Source of the DNA: Dehalococcoidia bacterium
GTDB lineage: Bacteria > Chloroflexota > Dehalococcoidia > Plut-88900
Assembly (NCBI GenBank): GCA_965197585.1
Contig: OZ240215.1
Coordinates: forward strand, 96,001 to 160,000
Reading direction: 5' to 3'
Length of the DNA: 64,000 bases
The notes under the pieces were generated by a model, which saw only the letters and a list, made by a program, of their open reading frames with translations, was not told the origin of the DNA and did not search any database. Positions within the stretch are counted from its first letter, which is position 1, and each line of letters starts with the position of its first letter. Position numbers and translations under genes: made by a program. Positions 4,519 through 22,284 of the stretch are shown here, piece by piece.

Positions 4519-5310
4519 CTATTCTCCCCCGAACCACGTCCCAGGCCCCTTGCCCTCGACCGCATCCAGCAAGGCGTGCGGCCGACGCCCGTCAGTTATC
4601 ACGGCCCTTACCGACGCCTCTGAGGCTTTTAGGCAAGCCTCGACCTTGGGAATCATACCCGAGTTGATAACTCCGGATTCGATCATGTTCTGCACGTCGT
4701 CTCTCGAAAGGGAGGATGCACAGGTGCCGGTCTCGTCCAAAATCCCTTCCACGTCGGTGAGAAAAACAAGGGTTGAGACATGAATCTCGGAGGCCAGGGC
4801 GCCGGCCACGGTGTCGGCGTTGACGTTCAGGATGCCCCTCCAGTCTGCGCTGCCGTTTCGCCGTTGGGAGGCTATGGGCGACAGGACGGGGAGAAAACCG
4901 CTCTTAACAAGGGCCTCTAAAGGCGTGGGGTCCACCCCCGTGACCCGACCCACATACCCCAGCTCCGAGTCCCGCACCTCCGCCTGGATAATTCCTCCGT
5001 CCACACCGCTCAGACCGACGGCTCGACCCCCGCACCCGGCTATCGAGGCAACCAGTTCCTTATTTACGAGACCTGCCAGGACGGCCGTGGCGACTTCAAG
5101 TGCTGGACCGTCGGTGACTCGCAGCCCGCGGACGAATCGCGCCTCGACCCCGTGACGCCGCTGCCAGTCCGACACAACATTGCCGCCGCCGTGAACGACG
5201 ATAATCTCGACTCCGTCGCGCTGGAGGGCAGCCAGGTCTGAGAATAGGGTGTCGGACGCGCCGAGGGCCCCTCCCCCAATCTTGACTACTGCCTGACGCA
5301 TCCCCTTCAC
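4519..5310 (-). CDS. argB: Acetylglutamate kinase
   Basis: VVKIGG, VHGGG, GLRVTD, NVNADT, GMIPKV motifs. Confidence 0.95.
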   Translation of the reverse strand: MKGMRQAVVKIGGGALGASDTLFSDLAALQRDGVEIIVVHGGGNVVSDWQRRHGVEARFVRGLRVTDGPALEVATAVLAGLVNKELVASIAGCGGRAVGLSGVDGGIIQAEVRDSELGYVGRVTGVDPTPLEALVKSGFLPVLSPIASQRRNGSADWRGILNVNADTVAGALASEIHVSTLVFLTDVEGILDETGTCASSLSRDDVQNMIESGVINSGMIPKVEACLKASEASVRAVITDGRRPHALLDAVEGKGPGTWFGGE

Positions 5311-5322
5311 CTTGACCCGGGC

Positions 5323-6543
5323 CTAGGTAGTGTACTCGCTGTTGAAGGTGACGTACTCCTCGGAGAGGTCACACGTCCAGGCCGTCGCCGACGCTTCTCC
5401 AACATTCAAGACCAGCTTGATCGAGACCTCTTCCTGGTCCAGTGAACGAGAGACCGCGTCTTCGTAATAGGGGACGGGGGTGCCGTTGTTGAGCATGAAG
5501 ATATCGTTGATGAAGAGGTCGGTCTTCGACTCCTCGATATACGCGCCCGTCCGACCCAACGCAGCCATGAGGCGTCCCCAGTTGGGGTCGTTCCCGTGTA
5601 TCGCGCTCTTGACCAGCATAGAGGTCGATATGATTCGAGCGGCGTTACGGGCCTCATCCAGGGAGAGGGCCTTTTCGATGATGATTTCGATTATCTTGGT
5701 AGCGCCCTCACCGTCCCGTGCTATCTGCTTGGCCAGGAAGGTGCAGACCTGTTTCAGCGCCTCCGTAAAGGTCTCCCCCTCGGCCCCGTCTCCCGAGATC
5801 GGCGCATTCCCTGCCAGCCCGTTGGCCAGCACGGTGACTGTATCGCTGGTACTGGTGTCTCCATCGATGCTGATCATGTTGAAAGAGTCACCCACGGCAT
5901 TCTCAAGAGCAGTCTGTAGAAAAGCAGGATCGACCGCCGCGTCCGTAGCGATAAACGAGAGCATAGTAGCCATGTCCGGGTGTACCATTCCCGCGCCCTT
6001 GGCTATCCCCCCGACCACCGCCTGGGTCCCGCCACCCGTGTCAAAAGAGACCGCGATCTCCTTGGGGTGGGTGTCGGTGGTCATGATGGCCCGTGCCATG
6101 AACGGCCCTCCATCATCAGTGACCTCAATTTCCTCTATCCCCGCCCGTATTCGGGCCATCGGCAGCTCGACGCCTATGACGCCGGTACTGGCGATCAGCA
6201 CGTCCTCTGCCGCAACTCCGAGCTTATTCCCCGCCAACACTGACATCTCTACCGCATCGATCCGCCCCTGCTCCCCGACCGACACGTTGGCGATGCCGCT
6301 GTTTACTACAACGGCTTGAGCATATGGGTCTTTCAGGTAGTCCCTGTTGACCAGAATCGCGGGTGCCGTTACCCGGTTCTTGGTGAAGACGGCTGCAGCA
6401 GCGGCGCGGGCCTCCGAGTAGATAAGCCCGAGGTCCAGTTTGTCGACGCCGTAGGGTTTGACTCCGCAGTAAACACCGCCGGCGCTGAACCCTTTGGGGC
6501 TGGTAACGGTGCCGCCTTCAATCCGTTCTATAGAGCCTTTCAT
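5323..6543 (-). CDS. argJ: Ornithine acetyltransferase ArgJ
   Basis: ASTGVIG, IMTTDT, AKGAGMVHPDMATML, RDGEGATK, DPNWGR, TCDLSEEYV. Start at ATG 6543. Confidence 0.96.
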   Translation of the reverse strand: MKGSIERIEGGTVTSPKGFSAGGVYCGVKPYGVDKLDLGLIYSEARAAAAAVFTKNRVTAPAILVNRDYLKDPYAQAVVVNSGIANVSVGEQGRIDAVEMSVLAGNKLGVAAEDVLIASTGVIGVELPMARIRAGIEEIEVTDDGGPFMARAIMTTDTHPKEIAVSFDTGGGTQAVVGGIAKGAGMVHPDMATMLSFIATDAAVDPAFLQTALENAVGDSFNMISIDGDTSTSDTVTVLANGLAGNAPISGDGAEGETFTEALKQVCTFLAKQIARDGEGATKIIEIIIEKALSLDEARNAARIISTSMLVKSAIHGNDPNWGRLMAALGRTGAYIEESKTDLFINDIFMLNNGTPVPYYEDAVSRSLDQEEVSIKLVLNVGEASATAWTCDLSEEYVTFNSEYTT

Positions 6544-6638
6544 TGCTGCCTTTCCGTGCCTCGATCCTCCCTGGACAGGCGTCGTGAAGTATATCACTTT
6601 TGGTCTTGGAGGCATGAGACTCGGTGTTCATTGAAACG

Positions 6639-6715: not shown

Positions 6716-7273
6716 TTAGGACATCCTGCCGTTCGTGAGGATGTCCACAATCTGGGGCAGGGCGTCCTTGGCCCGTGCCTTCAGGTCGTCATCCGCTAGG
6801 CTGCCGATGGGGTGCTTGACCACCACAAAGGGGTAGTCAGGGAGGCCGCGGGTGCGGGCGATGGCCTGCACTCCGGGTATGAACTGGTCGCTGATTATGA
6901 CAGCGGTGGGTACGCCCCGGTCTTCGAGGGAGATCGCGTCGTGCATACAGCACGTACTGCAGGAGCCTCAGTCCCCGATCGCAATCAGGGTGGCATCCGC
7001 CTTCTCCGCTAGCTCGTCGAGTAGCTCGGGGGGTGATACGTCGGAGACGTTTGGCCTGGCGACGAACGTGACGTCGGAGATCTCATACTCCGACTTGATG
7101 AGATCGGTGACCATCCAGAGGAGCTTGTCCCCGTTGAGCCTCCGGTCATGCAAGAGCCCGATGCGCTTGCCGTTGAGGCTGTCGATCTTGGGGGCCATAT
7201 CGATGTGCTCTTCGAGCATCTCGTCGCCCCTCGGGTCTAGGGCGATCATAGTTTTCAGCATGTCGCTGACCAT
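6716..7273 (-). CDS. UGSC-family selenoprotein (185 aa, Sec at UGA 6970-6968)
   Basis: ORFs 6968..7273 and 6716..6946 are in frame, joined by GAC-TGA-GGC-TCC-TGC-AGT-ACG-TGC-TGT-ATG = D-U-G-S-C-S-T-C-C-M. The paralog at 16553..17104 has UGA at the same position. Confidence 0.9.
6938..6967 (-). promoter_or_regulatory. Putative bacterial SECIS element
   Basis: Hairpin CGTGC-TGTAT-GCACG at +14..+28 after the UGA, with GU in the loop at +20/+21. Confidence 0.65.
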
Positions 7274-9722: not shown

Positions 9723-10730
9723 TTATTCTATTTCGCCGGTCTCGAAGATATGCGGCCCGAGGATTCCCAGCAATCCACTCGCAGCCAAATGCACCGTCCG
9801 ACCCGTCGGGTCTAGAGGCGGGGCCACTTCACAAATGTCTATTGCCTTGATGATGTCGTAGCTGGAAAGGGCTTCCATCATTTCCAGGAACTCCACGCCG
9901 GTGATTCCCGTGAATATCGGTGCCCCCGTCCCTGGTGACTCCGACCCATCCACCACGTCGATGTCTATCGTCACGTAGACAGCGTCCACACTGTGCCCCA
10001 CCACTTCCATCGCACTCCTCACAATTTCCGCCGGTCCCTGCTCCCGGATCATCTTGGCCGTGGTGACCTGCATGCCCCCCGACCTGAATATTCGGTGCTG
10101 CGCCGGATCGATTACCGATCCGTTTAGCCCGACCCACGCCATGTTGGTATAGGAGATGTGGGTGTCCTCGCTGAGCCGCCGGGCCTGCGTCCCGTGAGTG
10201 TACTTCCCCCCGACGCCGTGAACGTCCCGGAAGTCAGGGTGACTGTCGATATGCAGATACCCGAGCCTCGGGGACCCGCCCCGCTCCGACATCCCTTTCG
10301 AGAAGCCTGCAAATCCCGGGTAGGCCACGTAATGGTCGCCGCCAAGGAGTACTGGTACACCCCCTCTCTTCACAACATCGGCGACGCCCTTGATAACGAT
10401 TTCGGTCGTGTCCCGCATGTCCGTGGGGTTGATGTCGAAATCACCAATGTCGATGAGGGGTGGAGAGGCTACGGGCTTTCGCCAGATGCCGGTTTCCACG
10501 TCCATAAGGGTGTTCTCTGCTGAAACCTCGTAAGCCCCCCGATGCTGCATGGAGGCCTCACGGATGCCGCGGGGGCCGTACCGAGCCCCGGGCCGCCCTG
10601 TGACTACCCCCTGGTCTATCGGCACTCCCGCCACGACCAATGTTCCTTCCTCAACGTCCTCCACGCCCGCGATCTTGCCGCTGAAGAAAGAGGGGAAACC
10701 TGTGTATGACGTGTACAGCTTGCCTGCCAT
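9723..10730 (-). CDS. Ureohydrolase (agmatinase/guanidinase-like) family protein
   Basis: GARYGPRGIR, GGDH, DSHPD, HGT, DIDVVD metal-binding motifs. Confidence 0.9.
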   Translation of the reverse strand: MAGKLYTSYTGFPSFFSGKIAGVEDVEEGTLVVAGVPIDQGVVTGRPGARYGPRGIREASMQHRGAYEVSAENTLMDVETGIWRKPVASPPLIDIGDFDINPTDMRDTTEIVIKGVADVVKRGGVPVLLGGDHYVAYPGFAGFSKGMSERGGSPRLGYLHIDSHPDFRDVHGVGGKYTHGTQARRLSEDTHISYTNMAWVGLNGSVIDPAQHRIFRSGGMQVTTAKMIREQGPAEIVRSAMEVVGHSVDAVYVTIDIDVVDGSESPGTGAPIFTGITGVEFLEMMEALSSYDIIKAIDICEVAPPLDPTGRTVHLAASGLLGILGPHIFETGEIE

Positions 10731-10782: not shown

Positions 10783-11823
10783 CTAGGGCTCTACAATCGA
10801 CTCGATAACCGACGTACTCGAATGTCCATGAGAGAATATAGGCACCATCGCCGAGACCGCACCTCCCGTACCCCCCGCCACGTACAGGTGCAATTGCTCG
10901 GGTAACGTGGGAACGGATCGCTCCTCACTGACCGGGTCTTCGAACGGTGTGACGCCGCCCAGCTCATATGCCCGCTCGGCGTCGAATACCAGCCCCGGGC
11001 TCATTTCGTTCACGCGCTCTGCTATATATTCCTTGATCTCGGCCTTTGTCATGCCCGCGGGCGCTATATTGAAAAGATGCTCGCCGCTGATGATTAACAC
11101 CAACTCGCCGTGGCAATTGATGTTCGCGGCTATGGCATGGCTGATCGTGTCCAGGATCGCCTTGGGCGAGTTGTCGGCGTAGTTGAACACCGGGATTGGG
11201 GGCAGAGCGGGGAAAAGGCTTACTGTACTCGTCGATGGATCGAAACCCTTCTCGACATGATACGGTTCCCAGATGCTGCTCTCCTCATCCTCCGCGATGC
11301 AGCAGGTGTAACGCGCCGGGCTCCCGAACGCCGACTTGTCCGTCACGCCCGGTATCTCCCCGCAAACGTTCATCAATATCAGCCGCAGCGTCCGCCCGAT
11401 AGTTGAGTTCGCCCGCCACCCGGGCCCGAACAGGTTCCACCCGGAGTTGATGTCCAGCTTCTTCCGGATGGGCCCATTCACCACGATCATCGGCGCCGAC
11501 ATTCCGGATGTCGTCTCGCTTATGCCTGAGAGGTTGAACTCCGGCTTTAGCATCGCCCTCACAGCGGCCGCAACTACCGGAGCGTACTCAGCCTTGCAGC
11601 CGGCCATTATGGCGTTGACGGCAACCTTCTGAGCGGTGACGATCCAGTTCCGGCTCTCCCGTGTCCCGAGCACCTCATCAGGCGAGAGCCCCCCGGCTTC
11701 GAGGAATGCCTGCACGGCCTCCGCGGTGGGGGGCACGACGGGCAGGCCATCAGTCAAGCCCTGTTCGAAGAAATACTCGATTGCCTGGATAGTATCGGGA
11801 AGCTCTGTGCCCTTGGTCGTCAT
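10783..11823 (-). CDS. Conserved ~346-aa 'TDGLPVVPPT' protein (UGSC-associated family), paralog 1
   Basis: Shares TDGLPVVPPT, KVAVNAIMAGCK, RANSTIGRTLRL and DKSAFG with 11833..12873 and 17134..18177. Confidence 0.85.
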   Translation of the reverse strand: MTTKGTELPDTIQAIEYFFEQGLTDGLPVVPPTAEAVQAFLEAGGLSPDEVLGTRESRNWIVTAQKVAVNAIMAGCKAEYAPVVAAAVRAMLKPEFNLSGISETTSGMSAPMIVVNGPIRKKLDINSGWNLFGPGWRANSTIGRTLRLILMNVCGEIPGVTDKSAFGSPARYTCCIAEDEESSIWEPYHVEKGFDPSTSTVSLFPALPPIPVFNYADNSPKAILDTISHAIAANINCHGELVLIISGEHLFNIAPAGMTKAEIKEYIAERVNEMSPGLVFDAERAYELGGVTPFEDPVSEERSVPTLPEQLHLYVAGGTGGAVSAMVPIFSHGHSSTSVIESIVEP

Positions 11824-11832
11824 GATCTCTTT

Positions 11833-12873
11833 CTAGGCCGCGGATACGGGTTCAAGTACGCTTTTACTCAGAACGCCCTGTCCCCACAACGGAATAATCG
11901 TGGAATGTCCGCCGCCCTCTCCACCTGCGACCAGCAGGGTAATGCCTTCAGGAGTGGTGGAAATGCCCGAGTCGTCCGGGTCATCGGTGCCCGGGTACCA
12001 GGTCCCGCCCAGCGCCCCGATCCGCTCCCGTTCGTAGGCGAACTGAGGCTGAAACTCGTTGGCTCGCTTGGCCAGGTATTCCTTGACGTCCTGCTTGCTC
12101 CATCCCGCCGGCCCGATGTTCTGCGCGTGCTCGGGGCTCATTATGAGCATTACTGGCCCGTGGCAGACCAGGTTGGCGGCGATGGTGTGGCTCAGCGTGT
12201 CGAGAATCTGCTCCGGGATCGGGTCCGACTGGTTGAACACCTCCATTGGATGACAGACAGGGAAAAGGCCCACCGCACTCGACTCAAGCGCCATCCCCCG
12301 CTCGACGTGATACGGCTCCCATGGGCTCGCTTCTTCGTTCTCAGCTATGCAGAAGGTGTACCGCCCCGGGTGCCCGAACGTCGACTTATCTGTCACACCC
12401 GGAATTTCCCTGCATACGTTCATCAGCACGAGCCTGAGAGTACGGCCGATGGTAGCGTTGGCCCGCCACCCGGGCCCGAACAGGTTCCATCCCCCGTTGA
12501 CGTTTAGTTCCTTGCGGATTGGGCCGTTCACTACGATAAGTGGCGCCGAGGTCCCTGCCGTCTCCGCGATGGCGGATGCGTTGAACTCGGGCTTCAGTAG
12601 AGCCCGTATGGACGCAAGCACAACTGGTGCGTATTCGGCCTTGCAGCCCGCCATCACAGCGTTGACCGCCACTTTCTGAGCGGTCACGACCCAGTTACGG
12701 CTCGCCCGAGTCCCTATCACCTCCCCGGGCTCCGTACCCCCAGCCTCCAAAAACGCGCCCACGGTTTCCGCCGTAGGAGGCACGACAGGGAGGCCGTCTG
12801 TCATTCCCTGCTCGTAGAAATACTCAATCGCCTCGACGGTATCCGGTAATTGAATTCCGGCGGATTCGCTCAA
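11833..12873 (-). CDS. Conserved ~346-aa 'TDGLPVVPPT' protein, paralog 2
   Basis: Same motifs; tandem with paralog 1 (9-bp gap); TTG start after GGAGG. Confidence 0.85.
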   Translation of the reverse strand: MSESAGIQLPDTVEAIEYFYEQGMTDGLPVVPPTAETVGAFLEAGGTEPGEVIGTRASRNWVVTAQKVAVNAVMAGCKAEYAPVVLASIRALLKPEFNASAIAETAGTSAPLIVVNGPIRKELNVNGGWNLFGPGWRANATIGRTLRLVLMNVCREIPGVTDKSTFGHPGRYTFCIAENEEASPWEPYHVERGMALESSAVGLFPVCHPMEVFNQSDPIPEQILDTLSHTIAANLVCHGPVMLIMSPEHAQNIGPAGWSKQDVKEYLAKRANEFQPQFAYERERIGALGGTWYPGTDDPDDSGISTTPEGITLLVAGGEGGGHSTIIPLWGQGVLSKSVLEPVSAA

Positions 12874-14289: not shown

Positions 14290-14979
14290 CTAGTGCGGCA
14301 TCTTCCTCGCGGCTGCCCGGTACCGGCAGAACTCGCACCTGCGGGCCGAGGGCGGAGGCTCGGGGAGGTCAAGCAAGGTGACAACTTCGCTGAGAAAGGC
14401 ATCGAACGCGGCATCGTCACGGGGCATCTCCTTCCACTCCACATTGCCGCTATAGGATATCCGGCCTTGGGCGTCCCTAACAAGCGCGTCGGGTTCCACG
14501 CAGACGAGACCAAGCCGGGTGATGGGAGAGAGGGCCAAATTGCCGGGCGCGGCGCGCTCCAGCGCATAGGCGTAGGCGTGGAGCTGCCGTGTGTAGAGAG
14601 GCAGGTGACCGCTCTGTGTAGACGTGGTCTTGAAGTCGATAATTCCGTAGCTGCCGTCCTCAAACTCCAGCACCGAGTCAAAACGCCCGCGGATAAAACA
14701 CGTGGACGCCCGGCCTGGCAGTGCAATGGGCCTGGACTCGACCCAACTCTCTCCGTACTTCACCAACCCCGGCGGCAGTGTGTCCGAAATCTCCGCATTC
14801 GGCCTGTCGTTGAAGTATTCGTTCATCAGCCGGTCGATGACGCTGAAGATACCGGGGAAAGGAGTTCGGGGTCGGTAGAAGCCTCGAGCGACCTTAAGAT
14901 AGAAGCAACGCTTGCACTCCTCCCAGAGAAAAGCGAAGTCCGAGGGGCTGAGTTTCCAACTTTTTGTCGAAGTGGTCAT
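14290..14979 (-). CDS. PD-(D/E)XK nuclease superfamily protein
   Basis: LSPS..C.RCF N-terminus, GRFD, IIDFKT, QLHAYAYAL, C-terminal CEFC. ATG 14979 overlaps the upstream TGA (ATGA). Confidence 0.85.
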   Translation of the reverse strand: MTTSTKSWKLSPSDFAFLWEECKRCFYLKVARGFYRPRTPFPGIFSVIDRLMNEYFNDRPNAEISDTLPPGLVKYGESWVESRPIALPGRASTCFIRGRFDSVLEFEDGSYGIIDFKTTSTQSGHLPLYTRQLHAYAYALERAAPGNLALSPITRLGLVCVEPDALVRDAQGRISYSGNVEWKEMPRDDAAFDAFLSEVVTLLDLPEPPPSARRCEFCRYRAAARKMPH

Positions 14980-15344
14980 AAAGTGGGAGTGGCGAACAGG
15001 GGCGCGACACCCCAATGCTCGGCAATCTTGCCCTGCTCCACGCGGATGGTGTGTACTCCGGCCGAGACGGGACTCGGGCCTCCGCCGCACTCCTCCAGAA
15101 TCAAGGCTACAATACCTTCCCGGGCCCGTAACTCCGATATAGCGTAGTCCGATCCGCTCCCAAACAGACGTCGGGAGGCCAGAGACTGCTTCAACACCTC
15201 TCGGTCGGAGGGAAGCCCCGGAGGGCCCGCGTGTTCTCTAAAATCGGCGGACACCAGATCGTCAATGAGAATCATGCAGCTTTGGTTGGCAACTTCCTCC
15301 ACCAACCGCCGCACTACCTCGCAGTCCGCCGAGGCCTTCATCAT
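14976..15344 (-). CDS. SnoaL/NTF2-like (ester cyclase-like) protein
   Basis: VVRRLVEEV.NQ...LIDDLVSADFREH...R.EQGKIAEHWG pattern; this is the real 3' part of the long 14976..16436 ORF. Confidence 0.65.
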   Translation of the reverse strand: MMKASADCEVVRRLVEEVANQSCMILIDDLVSADFREHAGPPGLPSDREVLKQSLASRRLFGSGSDYAISELRAREGIVALILEECGGGPSPVSAGVHTIRVEQGKIAEHWGVAPLFATPTL

Positions 15345-15379: not shown

Positions 15380-16435
15380 TGTAAGTGTTAGGTAATTCGT
15401 TGACAGATTGGTATAAGAGGCCAACACCAATCTGGAGGCGAGAATGCGAGACAATAGCAAGGACCTCACCCTTGAACGTAACTACATTCAGAAGTGGCGG
15501 TTCCTCATCCATGAGTATCAACTGGTCAAGGCAGGGAAGCATCCCCGTTTCCGCTTCGCCCAGGACTTCTACTCCTTCCACGGCACTAGCCGTCAGACCT
15601 TTGCCAAGTACTACAACCGGTTCCTCCTCTCCCCCTCCGACAACGCCTTCCTCCCCCGTAAGCGGGGTCCCGGGTGGAAGTCCCGCCGCACCCTGCCCTA
15701 CATTGAGCAGAAGGTCATCAACGAGCGCCTTAACGGTACCAACCGTTACGAGATCTATGCCATACTCAAACCCATCCTTAAACACAACACCCCTAAGCCC
15801 TCCACCATCTACGCCATCACCAGACGCCACGGTTTCAATAGGCTCACAAAGCCGATGCAGCAGTCGAAGCGCAAGATCATCAAGACCCGGGCAGGAGAGC
15901 TGGGCCACCTGGACAGCCACTACCTCAGCCGGGATACCATCGTGGGCACCAAGCACCGCTACTACCTGGTGGGCCTCATCGACGCCTACACCCGTCTGGC
16001 CTGGGCCGAAGTGGTCGGAGACATCAAGAGTCTCTCCGTTATGTTTGCTACTCTGAAGTCCATCAATTTCCTTAACGTGGAGTACGGCATCCAATTCGAG
16101 GCCATCCTCACCGACAACGGCCCCGAGATGGCCTCCCCAAGGAACACCGAGGGCCACCCCATGGAACGGATGCTCAATGAGCTGGGCATAAAGCACCGCT
16201 ACACCCGCCCTTATAGGCCCCAGACCAACGGGAAGATAGAGCGGTTCTGGAGAACCTTGAACGAGGACCTGCTGGAGGGGACAACCTTCGAATCGGTCTC
16301 GGAACTGAAGGACGAGCTTCAGCAATACCTGATCTACTACAATACTCAGAGACCCCACCAGGCAATGGACGGAAAGACCCCTTTGGAGACCCTTAAATCC
16401 ACCTAATTCTGTCAACGAATTACCTGACATCCACA
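15380..16435 (+). mobile_element. IS481-family insertion sequence
   Basis: TGT...ACA ends, 28-bp inverted repeats (24/28 match, core AGGTAATTCGTTGACAGA), 5-bp target duplication ATTCC at 15375-15379 and 16436-16440. Confidence 0.92.
15444..16406 (+). CDS. IS481-family DDE transposase (integrase core)
   Basis: GHLD, ILTDNGPEM, HRYTRPYRPQTNGKIERFWRTL, YYNTQRPHQ. Confidence 0.95.
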   Translation: MRDNSKDLTLERNYIQKWRFLIHEYQLVKAGKHPRFRFAQDFYSFHGTSRQTFAKYYNRFLLSPSDNAFLPRKRGPGWKSRRTLPYIEQKVINERLNGTNRYEIYAILKPILKHNTPKPSTIYAITRRHGFNRLTKPMQQSKRKIIKTRAGELGHLDSHYLSRDTIVGTKHRYYLVGLIDAYTRLAWAEVVGDIKSLSVMFATLKSINFLNVEYGIQFEAILTDNGPEMASPRNTEGHPMERMLNELGIKHRYTRPYRPQTNGKIERFWRTLNEDLLEGTTFESVSELKDELQQYLIYYNTQRPHQAMDGKTPLETLKST

Positions 16436-16473
16436 ATTCCGATGCCCCGCGAGGAACCTGGGGCGGGGTCCTG

Positions 16474-16513
16474 TCCCCTCTCCCTTGACGGGAGAGGGCT
16501 AGGGTGAGGGTGA
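16474..16513. repeat. Family-A REP-like palindrome
   Basis: TCCCCTCTCCCTTGACGGGAGAGGGCTAGGGTGAGGGTGA. Confidence 0.8.
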
Positions 16514-16552: not shown

Positions 16553-17104
16553 TTACCCTTCCACTTCCAGAATCTTTAGAATCTGGGGAACGGCCGCCTG
16601 CGCCCGAGCCTTCAGATCCGTCGGGGTCAGCCGTCCGATCGGGTGATGAATTATGACGAATGGATAATCGGGGATGCCCTGTATCTCGGCGATGGCCTTA
16701 GCCTGGTTTACAAACTCGTCCGTGATGAGCACCGCAGAGGGTACGCCCAGTTTTTCGAGCTCAATTCCGTCGTGCAAACTGCACTGAGAGCAGGAGCCTC
16801 AGTCCCCGATCGCTACTACGGCGAAATCGCTCTCCTTTGCCAGCTCGGCCACCGTGTTAACCGGCGCCGGTCGAGACGCGTCAGCCTTGCTGGAAGCCTT
16901 CACGTTCTTCAACTCGAACTGCTCACCCAGCAGGTCTCCGACCATTTCCAGAAGCTCGGTGGCGTTATGCTTGCTGTTGGATAGCAGCCCGAGAACCTTT
17001 CCTTCAAGCTTGCCGGGCCTCGGGGCCATCTCCGCCTCGGCGTGGAGGGACTGGGCCCTGGGGTCCATCACAGTGATGCCCCCGTTCTTGGTCTCGGTTG
17101 TCAT
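16553..17104 (-). CDS. UGSC-family selenoprotein (183 aa, Sec at UGA 16801-16799)
   Basis: In-frame GAC-TGA-GGC-TCC-TGC-TCT-CAG-TGC-AGT-TTG-CAC = D-U-G-S-C-S-Q-C-S-L-H joins ORFs 16799..17104 and 16553..16777; colinear with 6716..7273. Confidence 0.9.
16769..16798 (-). promoter_or_regulatory. Putative bacterial SECIS element
   Basis: Hairpin GTGCA-GTT-TGCAC at +15..+27 after the UGA; loop GU at +20/+21, the same register as in the paralog. Confidence 0.65.
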
Positions 17105-17133
17105 GGCGCGCTCCTTTCCCGTGTGTTGGGACT

Positions 17134-18177
17134 CTACATACCGGGTATTTGCTTGGTTACCGACTTGGTTCCCTTGCCGCCGCCCCAGGGCATAATCGTG
17201 CAGAAAAACCCTCCCGCCGTGCCCCCGGCCACGAGCACCATCAGGTTGTCGGGGCTTTCGACGGCAGCAACGACTTCAGAATCGTCGTGCGATCCTTCCT
17301 CGGGGTCCCAGCCCCGGTCCATGCCGCTCCAGAAGGAATAAGGGCGTTTCGTCGCTTCGAAAAGATAGTTCTTTACGTAGTCCTTGGACAACCCTTCCTC
17401 ACGAATGTGGAGCAGTACCTCAGGGCTGATTACTACCATGAGTTCCCCACCGTTCGGCATCCCGTTGGCCAGGATTCCCCCGGCCAGGGAGTTGAGAATG
17501 CCCTCGGCGGTGTGGCTGCCGTGGTCGCTGCCTTGGATGGGAGCATTCCCCGCGTAGACCGTTACCGCGCTCGATTCCAGCGCCAGCCCGCGCTCCACGT
17601 GGAGCGGAGCCCAGGGGCTGAGCTCTTCGTTTTCGGCGAAGCAGTAGCTGTACTTACCCGGGTGCCCGAACGTCGACTTGTCCAGTATCCCCGGCACCGA
17701 GCCACACACGTTCATAATGATGAGCCGGATCGCCCTGCCTATTGTGGCGTTGGACCTCTTGGTAGGGCCGAACAGGTTGTTGGCGTAGTTGATGTCCAGT
17801 TCCTTCACGATTGGCCCATGTACCAGGACCATGTGGCCCGTGCCCGCCGTGCTCGCCGAGGTTCCGTGAAGGTTGAACTTCTCTTCGCACATCGCCGAGA
17901 TGGCGGTGGCGACGACGGGCATGTATTCGGGTTTGCACCCGGCCATGATGGCGTTGATGGCCACCTTCCCGGCGGTGATCTCCCGCTTGCGGGTCGGTAT
18001 CGTGCCGAGCACGTCCCCAGGAGCCTTGCCGATTGCGTCCAGGAATCGCGTCACCATATCGGGCGTAGGAGGCACGACGGGCAGGCCGTCGGTCAACCCC
18101 TGCTCGAAATAGAACTCGATAGCCTCAACGGTATCCGGTACTTGGAAAGTCTGAGAAACTGACTCGCTTTGCGCCAT
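17134..18177 (-). CDS. Conserved ~347-aa 'TDGLPVVPPT' protein, paralog 3, operonic with a UGSC selenoprotein
   Basis: Same motifs as paralogs 1 and 2; stop is 29 bp upstream of the UGSC start. Confidence 0.85.
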   Translation of the reverse strand: MAQSESVSQTFQVPDTVEAIEFYFEQGLTDGLPVVPPTPDMVTRFLDAIGKAPGDVLGTIPTRKREITAGKVAINAIMAGCKPEYMPVVATAISAMCEEKFNLHGTSASTAGTGHMVLVHGPIVKELDINYANNLFGPTKRSNATIGRAIRLIIMNVCGSVPGILDKSTFGHPGKYSYCFAENEELSPWAPLHVERGLALESSAVTVYAGNAPIQGSDHGSHTAEGILNSLAGGILANGMPNGGELMVVISPEVLLHIREEGLSKDYVKNYLFEATKRPYSFWSGMDRGWDPEEGSHDDSEVVAAVESPDNLMVLVAGGTAGGFFCTIMPWGGGKGTKSVTKQIPGM

Positions 18178-19281: not shown

Positions 19282-20136
19282 ATGGAAGACTCGCAACCCG
19301 GCGCACCCAAAAGCGCTTTCGCCCAACTGATGGCCCCTCCTCACCGGGACATCGATCTGTCTCGTGCGGCCCTCCTGATTGCCCAGGGGGAATACCCTGA
19401 CCTGGACATACCCTACTATCTGCATATTCTGGAGCGCCTCGGGCGGAGAGTTCGGTCCCGCTCCAAGGATGCATCGCCCAAGGCCGCCATTGAAGCCCTA
19501 AACCGCGTATTGTTTGAAGAGGAGGACTTCCGGGGCAACGAGGAAGAGTACTACGACCCCCGCAACAGCTATCTCAACGAAGTGATCGATAGGCGAATCG
19601 GCATCCCCATCACCCTCTCGGTCGTATATATCGAGGTCGCCCGGCACGCGGGCATCGAGATAAAAGGGGTCGGGTTTCCGGGCCACTTCATCGTCAAGCA
19701 CGAAAGTGAGGACGGCCCGATCTACATCGACCCCTTCTATAAGGGCCTGATACTCGATACGGAACACCTTGCCCAGAGGCTCCGCCTCACGGGTGGCGGA
19801 TTCATGCCCTTCCGGGAGCATCACTTGGCCGCATGTACAGAGGCCCAGCTCGTCACCCGGATGCTGAACAACCTCAAGGGCATACACGCCTCCCGACGCG
19901 ACTACGGAAAAGCCCTCACGGTCATCGAAATGATGATCGATGTATCGCCCTGGGACCTCGACGAGGTTAGAGACCGGGGCAAAGTGCGTCTCCAGCTGAA
20001 GGACTATTCCATGGCCCTAGTAGACCTGGAGACTTACCTCAACTTCCGCCCAGATGCCGAAGACGCCGAGGTCATAGGAAGAAGCGTGCAATATCTAAAG
20101 GGCCTGGCTCCCAGGGGCCCCGCCAAGGAGTTTTGA
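19282..20136 (+). CDS. SirB1-like / transglutaminase-like protein with TPR region
   Basis: YYDPRNSYLNEVIDRRIGIPITLS, GVGFPGHF, RMLNNLK. Confidence 0.9.
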   Translation: MEDSQPGAPKSAFAQLMAPPHRDIDLSRAALLIAQGEYPDLDIPYYLHILERLGRRVRSRSKDASPKAAIEALNRVLFEEEDFRGNEEEYYDPRNSYLNEVIDRRIGIPITLSVVYIEVARHAGIEIKGVGFPGHFIVKHESEDGPIYIDPFYKGLILDTEHLAQRLRLTGGGFMPFREHHLAACTEAQLVTRMLNNLKGIHASRRDYGKALTVIEMMIDVSPWDLDEVRDRGKVRLQLKDYSMALVDLETYLNFRPDAEDAEVIGRSVQYLKGLAPRGPAKEF

Positions 20137-21098
20137 GCGTGACCCTGATCATCCGCGAAGAAGAGGTAATGCAACTCCTGACAATGGAGGAGACCCTTGA
20201 CGCGGTCGAAGGCGCGTTTCGCAGTCAGGGTGAAGGGACGTCCTTAAATCGTGCCCGACGCCGCTTCCACGTTCCCGGCAGGGGCAGCATGCAACTCATG
20301 TCCGGCGTCTGCTACTACCGCAAGGCTATGGGCCTGAAGGTGTATACCTCCTACCGCACCGGCACCCGATTCATGGTCCTCCTCTTCAGCGCCGAGACCG
20401 GAGACCTTCTCGCCATCGTCCAGGCCGACCATCTTGGCAGGATGCGCACGGGAGCGGCTTCCGGTGTCGGCGCCAAATATCTCGCAAAAGAAGGGGCGAA
20501 GGTTGTGGGGATGATCGGCTCCGGGGGCCAGGCCGTAACGCAGCTTGAGGCTGTATGCGCGGTTCGAAATATTGAGACCGCCAAGGTCTACAGCCGCCGC
20601 CCCGAACCCCTCGCCGCGTTCTGTGACAGCATGTCCCAAAAGCTCGGCATCGACGTATCCCCCGCCCCCACCCCCGAGGACGCTATCACCGGAGCGGATG
20701 TGGTAGTGACGATCACCAACGCCCGTGACCCGGTGGTCAAGGGAGAATGGATCGCCGAAGGTGCCCACATCAACGCTGCGGGCAGCAACTCACTGATACG
20801 CAAGGAGATTGACGGTGAAGCCGTCCGTAAATGTGGCCTCATCACCGTCGACTCCCGGGAGCAGGCCCAACTCGAATGCGGCGACCTCCTCGTTCCCGCC
20901 GAGCGCGGCGTGGTTAAATGGGAGACCCTGACAGAACTCGGCGACGTGGTGTCGGGCAAAGCGCCAGGCAGAACATCGGACTCACAAATCACCCTCTTCG
21001 AGTCCCAGGGCCTCGCAATCCAGGACATTGCAACAGCCATGAGAATCTACGAATTGGCCCGCAAGCAAAACCTAGGCCAGGAAATCGACATTTTCTAA
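20133..21098 (+). CDS. Ornithine cyclodeaminase / mu-crystallin family protein
   Basis: RMRTGAASG, IGSGGQA, HINAAGS, ITLFESQGLAIQDIA. Confidence 0.9.
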   Translation: MSVTLIIREEEVMQLLTMEETLDAVEGAFRSQGEGTSLNRARRRFHVPGRGSMQLMSGVCYYRKAMGLKVYTSYRTGTRFMVLLFSAETGDLLAIVQADHLGRMRTGAASGVGAKYLAKEGAKVVGMIGSGGQAVTQLEAVCAVRNIETAKVYSRRPEPLAAFCDSMSQKLGIDVSPAPTPEDAITGADVVVTITNARDPVVKGEWIAEGAHINAAGSNSLIRKEIDGEAVRKCGLITVDSREQAQLECGDLLVPAERGVVKWETLTELGDVVSGKAPGRTSDSQITLFESQGLAIQDIATAMRIYELARKQNLGQEIDIF

Positions 21099-21126
21099 AG
21101 AACAGTCCCCTCCCATATCCCTTGAC

Positions 21127-21259
21127 GTGACCTTTGCATAACCCATGTCGGAGGGGCCGGGGCCGCTCGTGCTGAGCCCCGTCGAAGTATGAGCGGTGGG
21201 AGGGGAATGGCGATTAGAATAGCAAAGAATGGCTTGCCTTGCGGTTACACAAAGGTCTC
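21127..21259. mobile_element. 133-bp MITE inserted in a family-A palindrome
   Basis: Terminal inverted repeats GTGACCTTTGCATAACC / GGTTACACAAAGGTCTC; 5-bp direct repeat TTGAC on both flanks; contains a family-C palindrome. Confidence 0.8.
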
Positions 21260-21366
21260 TTGACGGGAGGGGGCTAGGGTCGGAGACTCGCTGAGGAGAG
21301 TGAGGGTGTTGTCCCGAAATACTGCAAGATTAGTTGTGTAAGACTCAGGATCAATAGGAGGAAATC

Positions 21367-22284
21367 ATGGAATACCAAGTCTGGCTAAACGGCGAGTTCA
21401 TGCCTAGAAGCGAGGCCAAGCTCGGCCTGACCGACAGGGGCCTGAGGCTCGGTGACGTGGTCTTCGATACCTCTCGCACCTTCAATGGCAAGGTCTTTCG
21501 CCTCGAAGACCACATCGACCGCCTCTACCGCTCCCTCACCTACGTCCGCATCGACCCCGGCATGACCAAGGATGAGATGATCGACATCACCCTCGACGTC
21601 GTTCAGCGCAACGAGTCCATCCGCGAGACCGGGGACGACTACATGGTCACCCAGTTCATCACCCGCGGCGAGGGCGGACGCTCTGCCTTGGCTCTGAAGC
21701 CCAACATTGCCATCTGGATAGATCCGTTGGACCACGCCCGAATGGCGCCCCACTACAGCGACGGTGCCCACGTAGTCATTCCCAAGATCAGGAGCTATCC
21801 CTCAGACGCCCTTGACCCGAAGATCAAGCACTACAGCCGGCTCAACTTCGTACTTGCTGAATTGGAGGCCACGGACATCGATCCCGAGGCCTTCCCCGTC
21901 CTCACTGATGCCCGTGGCAACCTCACCGAAAGCATAGGCTCTAACTTCTTCATCGTCACCGACGGCAAGATAAGGACCGCCGGGGACTCGGCCATACTCC
22001 AGGGCGTCACCCGGAAGGTCATCGGCGAGTTGGCGGAGCAGTTGGGCATCCCCTTCATCGAAGAGGAAATCCAGCCCTACGACGCCTACACCGCCGACGA
22101 GGCATTCCTCGCCACCACTCCCTACTGCGTCGTGCCTGTAGGAAGAGTCGACACCCGCACCGTCGGCCAAGAGGTTCCGGGCCCTATCACCCAGCAACTA
22201 ATGGCTGCCTTCTCAGAGCTGGCCGGGTTCGATATCGTCGAGCAGTCCATCAACCGGGCTCGCGCCGTAACTGCTGCCCGTTGA
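21367..22284 (+). CDS. Class IV PLP aminotransferase (BCAT/D-amino acid aminotransferase-like)
   Basis: DRGL..GD.VFD, HIDRL, PLP lysine in KIKHYSRLN, ILQGVTRK, ADEAFL. Confidence 0.9.
   Translation: MEYQVWLNGEFMPRSEAKLGLTDRGLRLGDVVFDTSRTFNGKVFRLEDHIDRLYRSLTYVRIDPGMTKDEMIDITLDVVQRNESIRETGDDYMVTQFITRGEGGRSALALKPNIAIWIDPLDHARMAPHYSDGAHVVIPKIRSYPSDALDPKIKHYSRLNFVLAELEATDIDPEAFPVLTDARGNLTESIGSNFFIVTDGKIRTAGDSAILQGVTRKVIGELAEQLGIPFIEEEIQPYDAYTADEAFLATTPYCVVPVGRVDTRTVGQEVPGPITQQLMAAFSELAGFDIVEQSINRARAVTAAR

Follow-up and report, generated by a model that had tools for sequence, protein, structure and literature searches.

The gene at positions 16553..17104 (minus strand) is in all likelihood one functional selenoprotein gene of the UGSC family, in which an in-frame UGA would be read as selenocysteine (Sec). 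It was analyzed within a 64,000-nt stretch of a Dehalococcoidia genome (the window). Translation of the reading frame gives 183 codons, from the ATG at 17104-17102 to the TAA at 16555-16553, with a single in-frame TGA at codon 102 (16799..16801, minus strand). This codon occupies the Sec position, the U of the motif U-G-S-C-x-x-C, and its translated context is AIGD-U-GSCSQCSLHD. A ribosome-binding site, AAGGAG, was read from the sequence at 17111..17116 (minus strand), 6 nt 5′ of the ATG. The 183-residue protein matches PF24696, the ‘UGSC family’, with 187.2 bits (cut-off 25; positions 1-171 of the 172-position model, residues 11-180), and NF041046, the ‘UGSC family (seleno)protein’, with 149 bits (cut-off 125; positions 2-146 of 147). 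The alignment to a single profile, PF24696, continues across the TGA. As a kind of gene this is nothing new: the selenoprotein family to which it belongs is known and curated, and the gene is an unremarkable member of it. The original prediction had called it a ‘hidden’ selenoprotein, a description that does not apply, since the family is already curated under both models.

The UGSC family has been in print since 2007/2008, where it is presented as a selenoprotein with predicted SECIS elements (PMC1976440, PMC2398784, PMC13188914), and the name used in the literature is the ‘UGSC-containing protein’ of Zhang and Gladyshev. In its passages on this family, the GOS analysis counts 255 Sec members and 21 Cys members, points out a UxxC motif and a possible thioredoxin-like fold, and lists a ‘UGSC/Unknown_1’ fusion (PMC2398784). 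The family also appears in a 2022 review (PMC9312934) and in a 2026 review, in a table of which it is entered under NF041046 (PMC13188914).

The genome carries three UGSC copies. A paralogous selenoprotein gene of 185 residues is located within the window at 6716..7273 (minus strand), with its UGA, also codon 102, at 6968-6970 and the hairpin GUGC-UGUAU-GCAC at 6941-6953; the translated context of its TGA is AIGD-U-GSCSTCCMHD. The third copy (L002:1465-2043) lies elsewhere in the genome. These two copies match NF041046 with 142 and 148 bits, respectively. All three copies contain one TGA, and in all three it is followed by GUGC-N5-GCAC, with GU as the second and third bases of the loop. The two paralogs of the window had been described as widely diverged in protein sequence while keeping the same nucleotides around the TGA, and this was borne out: the proteins share 46% identity over 168 residues, yet the 21-mer ATCGGGGAC-TGA-GGCTCCTGC has exactly two occurrences in the window (6959-6979 and 16790-16810, minus strand in each case), compared to an expectation of 0 in 100 shuffles. 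The third copy carries the identical 21-mer. The hairpin was likewise found as described, with a GUGC/GCAC stem at +15..+27 and GU at +20/+21 (in the numbering of the original prediction) in both genes, GUGC-AGUUU-GCAC in the 16553 gene and GUGC-UGUAU-GCAC in the 6716 gene, and the peptides after the UGA differ as claimed (SQCSL versus STCCM).

Sec incorporation would require a dedicated machinery, and its components were found in this genome, which consists of one contig of 3.43 Mb; the loci that are 98-99% identical to the query belong to Dehalococcoidia MAGs. The selB, selA, and selD products score 369.6, 542.7, and 385.4 bits, all above the curated cut-offs, and a tRNA-SeC with the anticodon tca (UCA) was called by ARAGORN. 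The selD gene (L022, C1:3357253-3358176, minus strand) carries one in-frame TGA of its own, and the selenophosphate synthetase is probably itself a selenoprotein here. TGA terminates 6 of the 35 long frames in the window, and therefore there is no sign of genome-wide reassignment of this codon.

Conservation of the UGA was examined in a scan of relatives, taken at one genome per species. The scan gave 448 relatives, and the best 80 loci were retained; together with the three copies of the genome itself these make 83 loci and 84 genes, as one locus (L045) holds two genes. TGA is present at the same aligned position in 84/84 genes of this set (best 80 of 448 relatives plus own copies), which come from Dehalococcoidia, Methylomirabilota/Rokubacteria, and Alpha- and Gammaproteobacteria. 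Among 401 Chloroflexota genomes, 50 have a match, and 86 of the 92 matches over the cut-off carry one TGA, a tally that was counted by hand from the table and takes in the unpublished G038 and G227; three of the six matches without TGA are fragments missing the site. No variation is seen at residues D101, U/C102, G103, and C105 across 50 aligned homologues. The earlier argument that a stop kept in both copies points to recoding rather than pseudogenisation is upheld on this wider basis, as the profile runs through the TGA, the codon is kept in all three copies and throughout the homologues, and selA, selB, selD, and tRNA-Sec are present.

The hairpin GUGC-AGUUU-GCAC that follows the UGA is very probably the SECIS element, judging from its position and from its codon usage. 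It spans 16772..16784 (minus strand), nt 18-30 counted from the U of the UGA, with G23 at 16779 and U24 at 16778. The 4-bp stem (nt 18-21 with nt 27-30) and the GU at nt 23/24 are found in 84/84 Sec genes (best 80 of 448 relatives plus own copies), and the 13-mer hairpin occurs among these 84 genes in only five sequence variants.

Evidence that this hairpin is maintained as RNA was obtained from synonymous codon usage. Synonymous diversity was defined, for each codon column, as the frequency of differing codons between two sequences with an identical residue, and was calculated for 55 representatives of less than 85% nucleotide identity, in the 141 columns with at least 300 same-residue pairs. 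The mean over these 141 columns is 0.49. Values of 0.05 or lower occur in only three of them, and these three are the consecutive codons 107, 108, and 109, which encode the loop and the 5′ side of the stem. At codon 107, Thr is always ACG (42/42) and Gln always CAG (12/12), codon 108 is always the Cys codon TGC (55/55), and at codon 109, Ser is always AGT (52/52) and Cys always TGT (3/3), with the qualification that the representatives are related to each other and the codon counts are not independent. Leu at codon 110 is encoded by TTG or CTG only. At the neighbouring codon 106, Ser is encoded by six codons (diversity 0.81), and Thr at codon 128, elsewhere in the gene, is mostly ACC (38 of 49 Thr codons). 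The absence of synonymous variation at codons 107-109 reflects selection that acts on the RNA rather than the protein. The codons of the 21-mer around the TGA vary normally across phyla (synonymous diversity 0.17-0.74), and the identity of the 21-mer among the three copies is mostly a matter of amino-acid identity (I-G-D-U-G-S-C) and of a codon choice common to the lineage.

Thermodynamic and covariation analyses were less informative. The fold energy of a 71-nt stretch was not better than that of its shuffles (z = 0.05 and 0.31); because the hairpin is small, folding energy alone would not single it out. RNAalifold returned the 4-bp stem only and no covariation, the sole change in the stem being GC to GU at one pair; covariation is missing because the stem does not vary. 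A covariance alignment after the UGA had been proposed as a check; no covariation was detected, and the stem and GU are present in 84/84 genes. RNAfold predicted lower helices that may extend the element from the UGA to about nt 45 (16757..16801, minus strand), a possible extended SECIS that is weakly supported. A 16-pair extended structure, derived from one proteobacterial homologue, showed covariation no better than that of shuffles (49/500 and 43/500), and therefore only the apical hairpin is claimed. A search of the whole window against Rfam at the gathering score returned no SECIS family, and at E values up to 10 the region 16700-16850 gave only chance lncRNA and miRNA rows.

Homologues with Cys in place of Sec were collected with the degenerate pattern G-D-C-G-S-C-x-x-C-x-x-H-D, which yielded 26 metagenome stretches, 15 of them true homologues, in four lineages. 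They are continuous open reading frames of 178-186 aa, and the partner gene described below is present there too. Lineage A (11 loci) has AUGC-UGUAU-CCAU, with a minimum free energy (MFE) of -2.5 kcal/mol for the +13..+30 stretch and no GU at nt 23/24; lineage B (2 loci) has CUGC-ACGCU-GCAC, with a weakened stem of about -3 kcal/mol and no GU. The stem is kept in lineage C (1 locus; GUGC-UCACU-GCAU, -6.0 kcal/mol, with Ser as TCA) and in lineage D (1 locus; GUGC-ACCAU-GCAC, -7.4 kcal/mol), both again lacking the GU. The mean MFE of the Sec forms over the same stretch is -6.7 kcal/mol. Residue 109 is free in the Cys lineages, where it is C, T, S, and T, with Ser as TCA. Cys homologues had been expected to lose the hairpin, and in this small sample of 15 loci the expectation held for the combination of stem and GU, which is kept by 0/4 lineages, but not for the stem as such, which is a stable 4-bp stem in 2/4. 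With two of the four Cys lineages forming a stem as stable as that of the Sec forms, the stem alone does not discriminate, and the synonymous constraint is ranked as stronger evidence for the hairpin than the comparison with Cys homologues.

Additional comparisons come from subfamilies in which the UGSC-like domain is fused to its partner. Fused subfamilies with very different peptides at the site (e.g., TAD-U-GSCTSW) place a hairpin at the same distance from the UGA. In the subfamily with VGH-U-STCAPAVA, five Sec forms have GCGCCGGCGGUCGCCGUGCAC in common, which can pair as CGGC-GGUC-GCCG. This stem cannot form in a Cys paralog (L104), which differs from the five Sec forms here mostly at synonymous sites; a Sec paralog of the same genome (L107) has a weaker version of the stem, which is not predicted by RNAfold. 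The genome in question (G292) holds these two as near-identical fused paralogs, L107 with VGH-U-STC and L104 with VGH-C-STC. Two further fused forms, L105 (G268) and L106 (G371), have neither Sec nor Cys at the site (GFGDTRSGS and ALADMGVT).

These results bear on the possibility that the hairpin is a by-product of protein conservation, specifically of the codons for Cys-x-x-His, and that some other signal directs Sec insertion. Four of the eight stem nucleotides, the UG of the Cys108 codon and the CA of the His111 codon, are indeed dictated by conserved residues, a 4-bp stem about as stable persists in two of the four Cys lineages, no covariation was detected, and the fold z-score is about 0. 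Nevertheless, such a by-product would not account for the absence of synonymous variation in exactly codons 107-109 out of 141 columns, for a Ser109 that is always AGT although Ser106 uses six codons, or for a Thr107 that is always ACG where Thr128 prefers ACC. It also leaves aside that the GU at 23/24 is present in none of the four Cys lineages, that the loop falls at the positions of the E. coli SECIS, and that the hairpin also occurs in fused subfamilies with other peptides. This explanation was judged very unlikely, and the hairpin is preferred as the SECIS.

Two other accounts would do away with Sec altogether. Under translation table 11 the frame splits into the open reading frames 16799-17104 and 16553-16777, which could represent a pseudogene, or two small genes (101 aa and 74 aa) separated by a genuine stop, and TGA does serve as a stop for other long frames of the window (the 6 of 35 noted above). 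This reading is extremely improbable when set against one profile that runs through the TGA and a TGA kept in 84/84 homologues from four phylum-level groups; moreover, the Cys homologues are continuous at 178-186 aa, a single beta sheet spans the site in the predicted structure, and the downstream frame has a TTG start only. Alternatively, near-cognate decoding or an altered genetic code might place one of the standard residues Cys, Trp, or Gly at the UGA, with no involvement of selenium. The family does include Cys forms, presumably functional ones, with 21 Cys versus 255 Sec members in the GOS count (PMC2398784). Against it are a complete set of selA, selB, selD, and tRNA-Sec, the use of TGA as a stop in other long frames, the curation of the family as a selenoprotein, and a hairpin with the geometry of a SelB-binding element, all of which leave this account with hardly any probability. 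The preferred explanation is one gene with selenocysteine at codon 102. The hairpin at nt 18-30 would then act as the SECIS that recruits SelB with Sec-tRNA(Sec), and this recruitment would cause the UGA of codon 102 to be decoded as selenocysteine and not as a stop.

An AF2 model of the UGSC protein, built from a 50-sequence alignment (mean pLDDT 92.6), predicts one alpha/beta domain with five beta-alpha units. Strands 37-42, 67-72, and 94-97 precede the UGA, and strands 123-128 and 149-152 follow it. Sec102 follows strand 94-97 and caps the N-terminus of helix 103-118; a helix N-cap right after a beta strand is the usual place of a redox-active Cys or Sec. The protein would bear a redox-active selenol/thiol pair (UxxC). 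The predicted domain looks flavodoxin-like. A Foldseek search of the PDB with this model matched varied alpha/beta proteins at TM 0.45-0.50, including flavodoxin-like ones such as azoreductase, WrbA, and lumazine synthase; among the matches listed, none is described as a thioredoxin, and the fold may still be thioredoxin-like. A sequence search of the PDB with the UGSC protein and its partner returned nothing below E = 0.5.

A weak resemblance was detected between the Sec region of UGSC and the C-terminal Sec part of GrdB/PrdB, which is a lead and not a family membership. TIGR01917 aligns with UGSC at E = 0.0047 over model positions 330-423 only, and hhalign places UGSC residues 114-160 on residues 368-409 of the genome's GrdB-like protein with the Sec register matched (E = 0.0053, probability 6.8%). 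No match to PF07355 (the GRDB domain) was found in the UGSC protein at E values up to 1. Membership of UGSC in the GrdB/PrdB family was ruled out by the TIGR01917 score of 15.9 bits against a cut-off of 602.2 and by the absence of the N-terminal domain. The genome contains two GrdB-family genes, L150:1474-2802 (C1:2153000-2154037) and L151:1435-2820 (C1:1578965-1580008), which score 508 and 491 bits against TIGR01918 (glycine/betaine/sarcosine/D-proline family reductase selenoprotein B). In both, an in-frame TGA occurs right after GVILT[AG]T and is followed by a continuation that reads U-GTGTRSGAT, and in each the UGA is followed by a 7-bp hairpin whose loop is at nt 22-24. The two genes are further selenoproteins that gene calling with table 11 would truncate.

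The gene upstream of UGSC, at 17134..18177 (minus strand), encodes a protein of 347 aa that could be assigned to no named family. The end of this gene lies 29 nt before the UGSC start, and the two genes are probably co-transcribed. A partner homologue is found on the same strand within 400 nt upstream of UGSC in 70 of 80 loci (best 80 of 448 relatives); of the ten loci without it, nine seem to carry orthologues of the 6716-type paralog, and the remaining one is not long enough to decide. The 6716-7273 paralog itself has no partner directly upstream, like its nine orthologue loci. Fusions were sought in 20 Chloroflexota loci selected for long open frames or an absent stop; the UGSC-like domain and the partner domain are joined in one frame in 18 of these 20 selected loci, and are encoded by adjacent genes in the other two. 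A tblastx comparison between distant loci revealed no third conserved neighbour: only UGSC and the partner are kept across distant clades. From this linkage and fusion, we infer that UGSC and the 347-aa protein may act together.

The partner gave few clues to its relationships. Searches with the partner protein against Pfam and NCBIfam returned no match, and for four paralogs Pfam gave only chance matches at E values up to 10. Its AF2 model (pLDDT 90.2) found nothing in the PDB with Foldseek at E ≤ 0.001, and the best hit of a wide VIA-align search, to a subdomain of 82 residues, reached Z 5.5. At Z 3.5-4.5 the VIA-align matches included class I fumarate hydratase and L-serine dehydratase, as a lead only, and a search of the ESM Atlas returned only the partner's own unnamed family. 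Two of its cysteines, Cys81 and Cys179, are at least 90% conserved. The genome has five partner paralogs, three of them in the window and the fifth at C1:1893509-1894534. Two of the window copies form a tandem at 10783-11823 and 11833-12873 (minus strand), with 44% and 49% identity to the partner and no Pfam family; no UGSC gene adjoins them.

In the window, the UGSC and partner copies lie among genes for the metabolism of arginine, ornithine, and proline (4519-6615, 9723-10730, and 20133-22284), and the neighbours include ArgJ, an amino-acid kinase, an arginase-family protein, an ornithine cyclodeaminase/mu-crystallin, and a class IV aminotransferase. This arginine/ornithine/proline context is not kept in distant clades. 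Directly downstream of the UGSC gene lies a transposase with integrase core domains (rve_3, rve) at 15444-16406 (plus strand), beside an open reading frame of the PD-(D/E)XK nuclease family at 14290-15090 (minus strand). UGSC and the next partner paralog are about 1.2 kb closer together in L024, a relative with 99% identity, which points to the recent insertion of an IS downstream of UGSC in the window. A G+C-rich inverted repeat, CCCTCTCCC ... GGGAGAGGG, is located at about 16470-16500, some 55-85 nt past the UGSC stop, and may be a terminator, or may mark where the neighbouring IS ends.

Taken as a pair, UGSC and the 347-aa protein would constitute a two-subunit or fused redox enzyme, to which UGSC would supply the reactive selenol/thiol (UxxC) pair. 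A more extended proposal is conceivable and on balance unlikely: that UGSC and its partner form a widespread two-subunit or fused selenoenzyme, whose Sec module shares ancestry with the C-terminal Sec module of GrdB/PrdB and whose large subunit has a fold without a clear solved relative, and which, given the arginine, ornithine, and proline genes around the copies in the window, might be a new reductase for an amino-acid-derived substrate. The linkage and fusion to the 347-aa protein provide a concrete partner for working out the role of an abundant environmental selenoprotein. The leads that most deserve follow-up are this conserved, fused partner and the weak link to the Sec module of GrdB/PrdB. 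The Dehalococcoidia genome uses selenocysteine, and its selenoproteome, which comprises three UGSC genes, two genes of the GrdB family, and selD, is easily missed because standard gene calling breaks such genes apart. The lack of synonymous change at codons +5 to +7 offers a sequence-level argument for a SECIS of the UGSC family, with G23/U24 in its loop.

Compared to GrdB/PrdB (TIGR01917/TIGR01918), the Sec region of UGSC has the same layout of a strand, U-x-x-(C), and a helix, and likewise has E-[KR]-x-G-x-P 12 residues past the Sec and a later HP[IL]G. It differs in that UGSC is without the N-terminal GRDB domain of about 350 residues, and in that its partner is an unrelated protein of 347 aa.

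The hairpin itself can be compared to the fdhF-type SECIS of E. coli, the upper stem-loop of which, at a distance of 11 nt from the UGA, is described as comprising nt 15-31 and as presenting G23 and U24 in its loop (PMC8659212). In both, a hairpin inside the coding sequence follows the UGA, lies within nt 15-31, and presents G23/U24 in its loop (PMC8659212). Here, in contrast, the apical stem has 4-6 bp, the lower helices are poorly supported, and no Rfam match was obtained. The bulged U17, which contacts SelB in E. coli, is absent: position 17 of the 16553 gene is an unpaired A, 5′ of the stem, and the Thr-type homologues have a paired C there. The bulged U17 is a feature of the E. coli element, and is not known to be one of bacterial SECIS elements generally.

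With respect to the UGSC family as described, the likeness is close. The protein matches over its full length above the cut-offs, has the U-G-S-C motif with Sec encoded by TGA and a size of about 180 aa, and comes from the same kind of host, environmental bacteria. On the fold, a thioredoxin-like structure was proposed in the account of the family in PMC2398784, whereas the predicted model obtained here looks flavodoxin-like. There is no essential difference from the described family; the present gene is a further member, found in a Dehalococcoidia MAG that has three paralogs.
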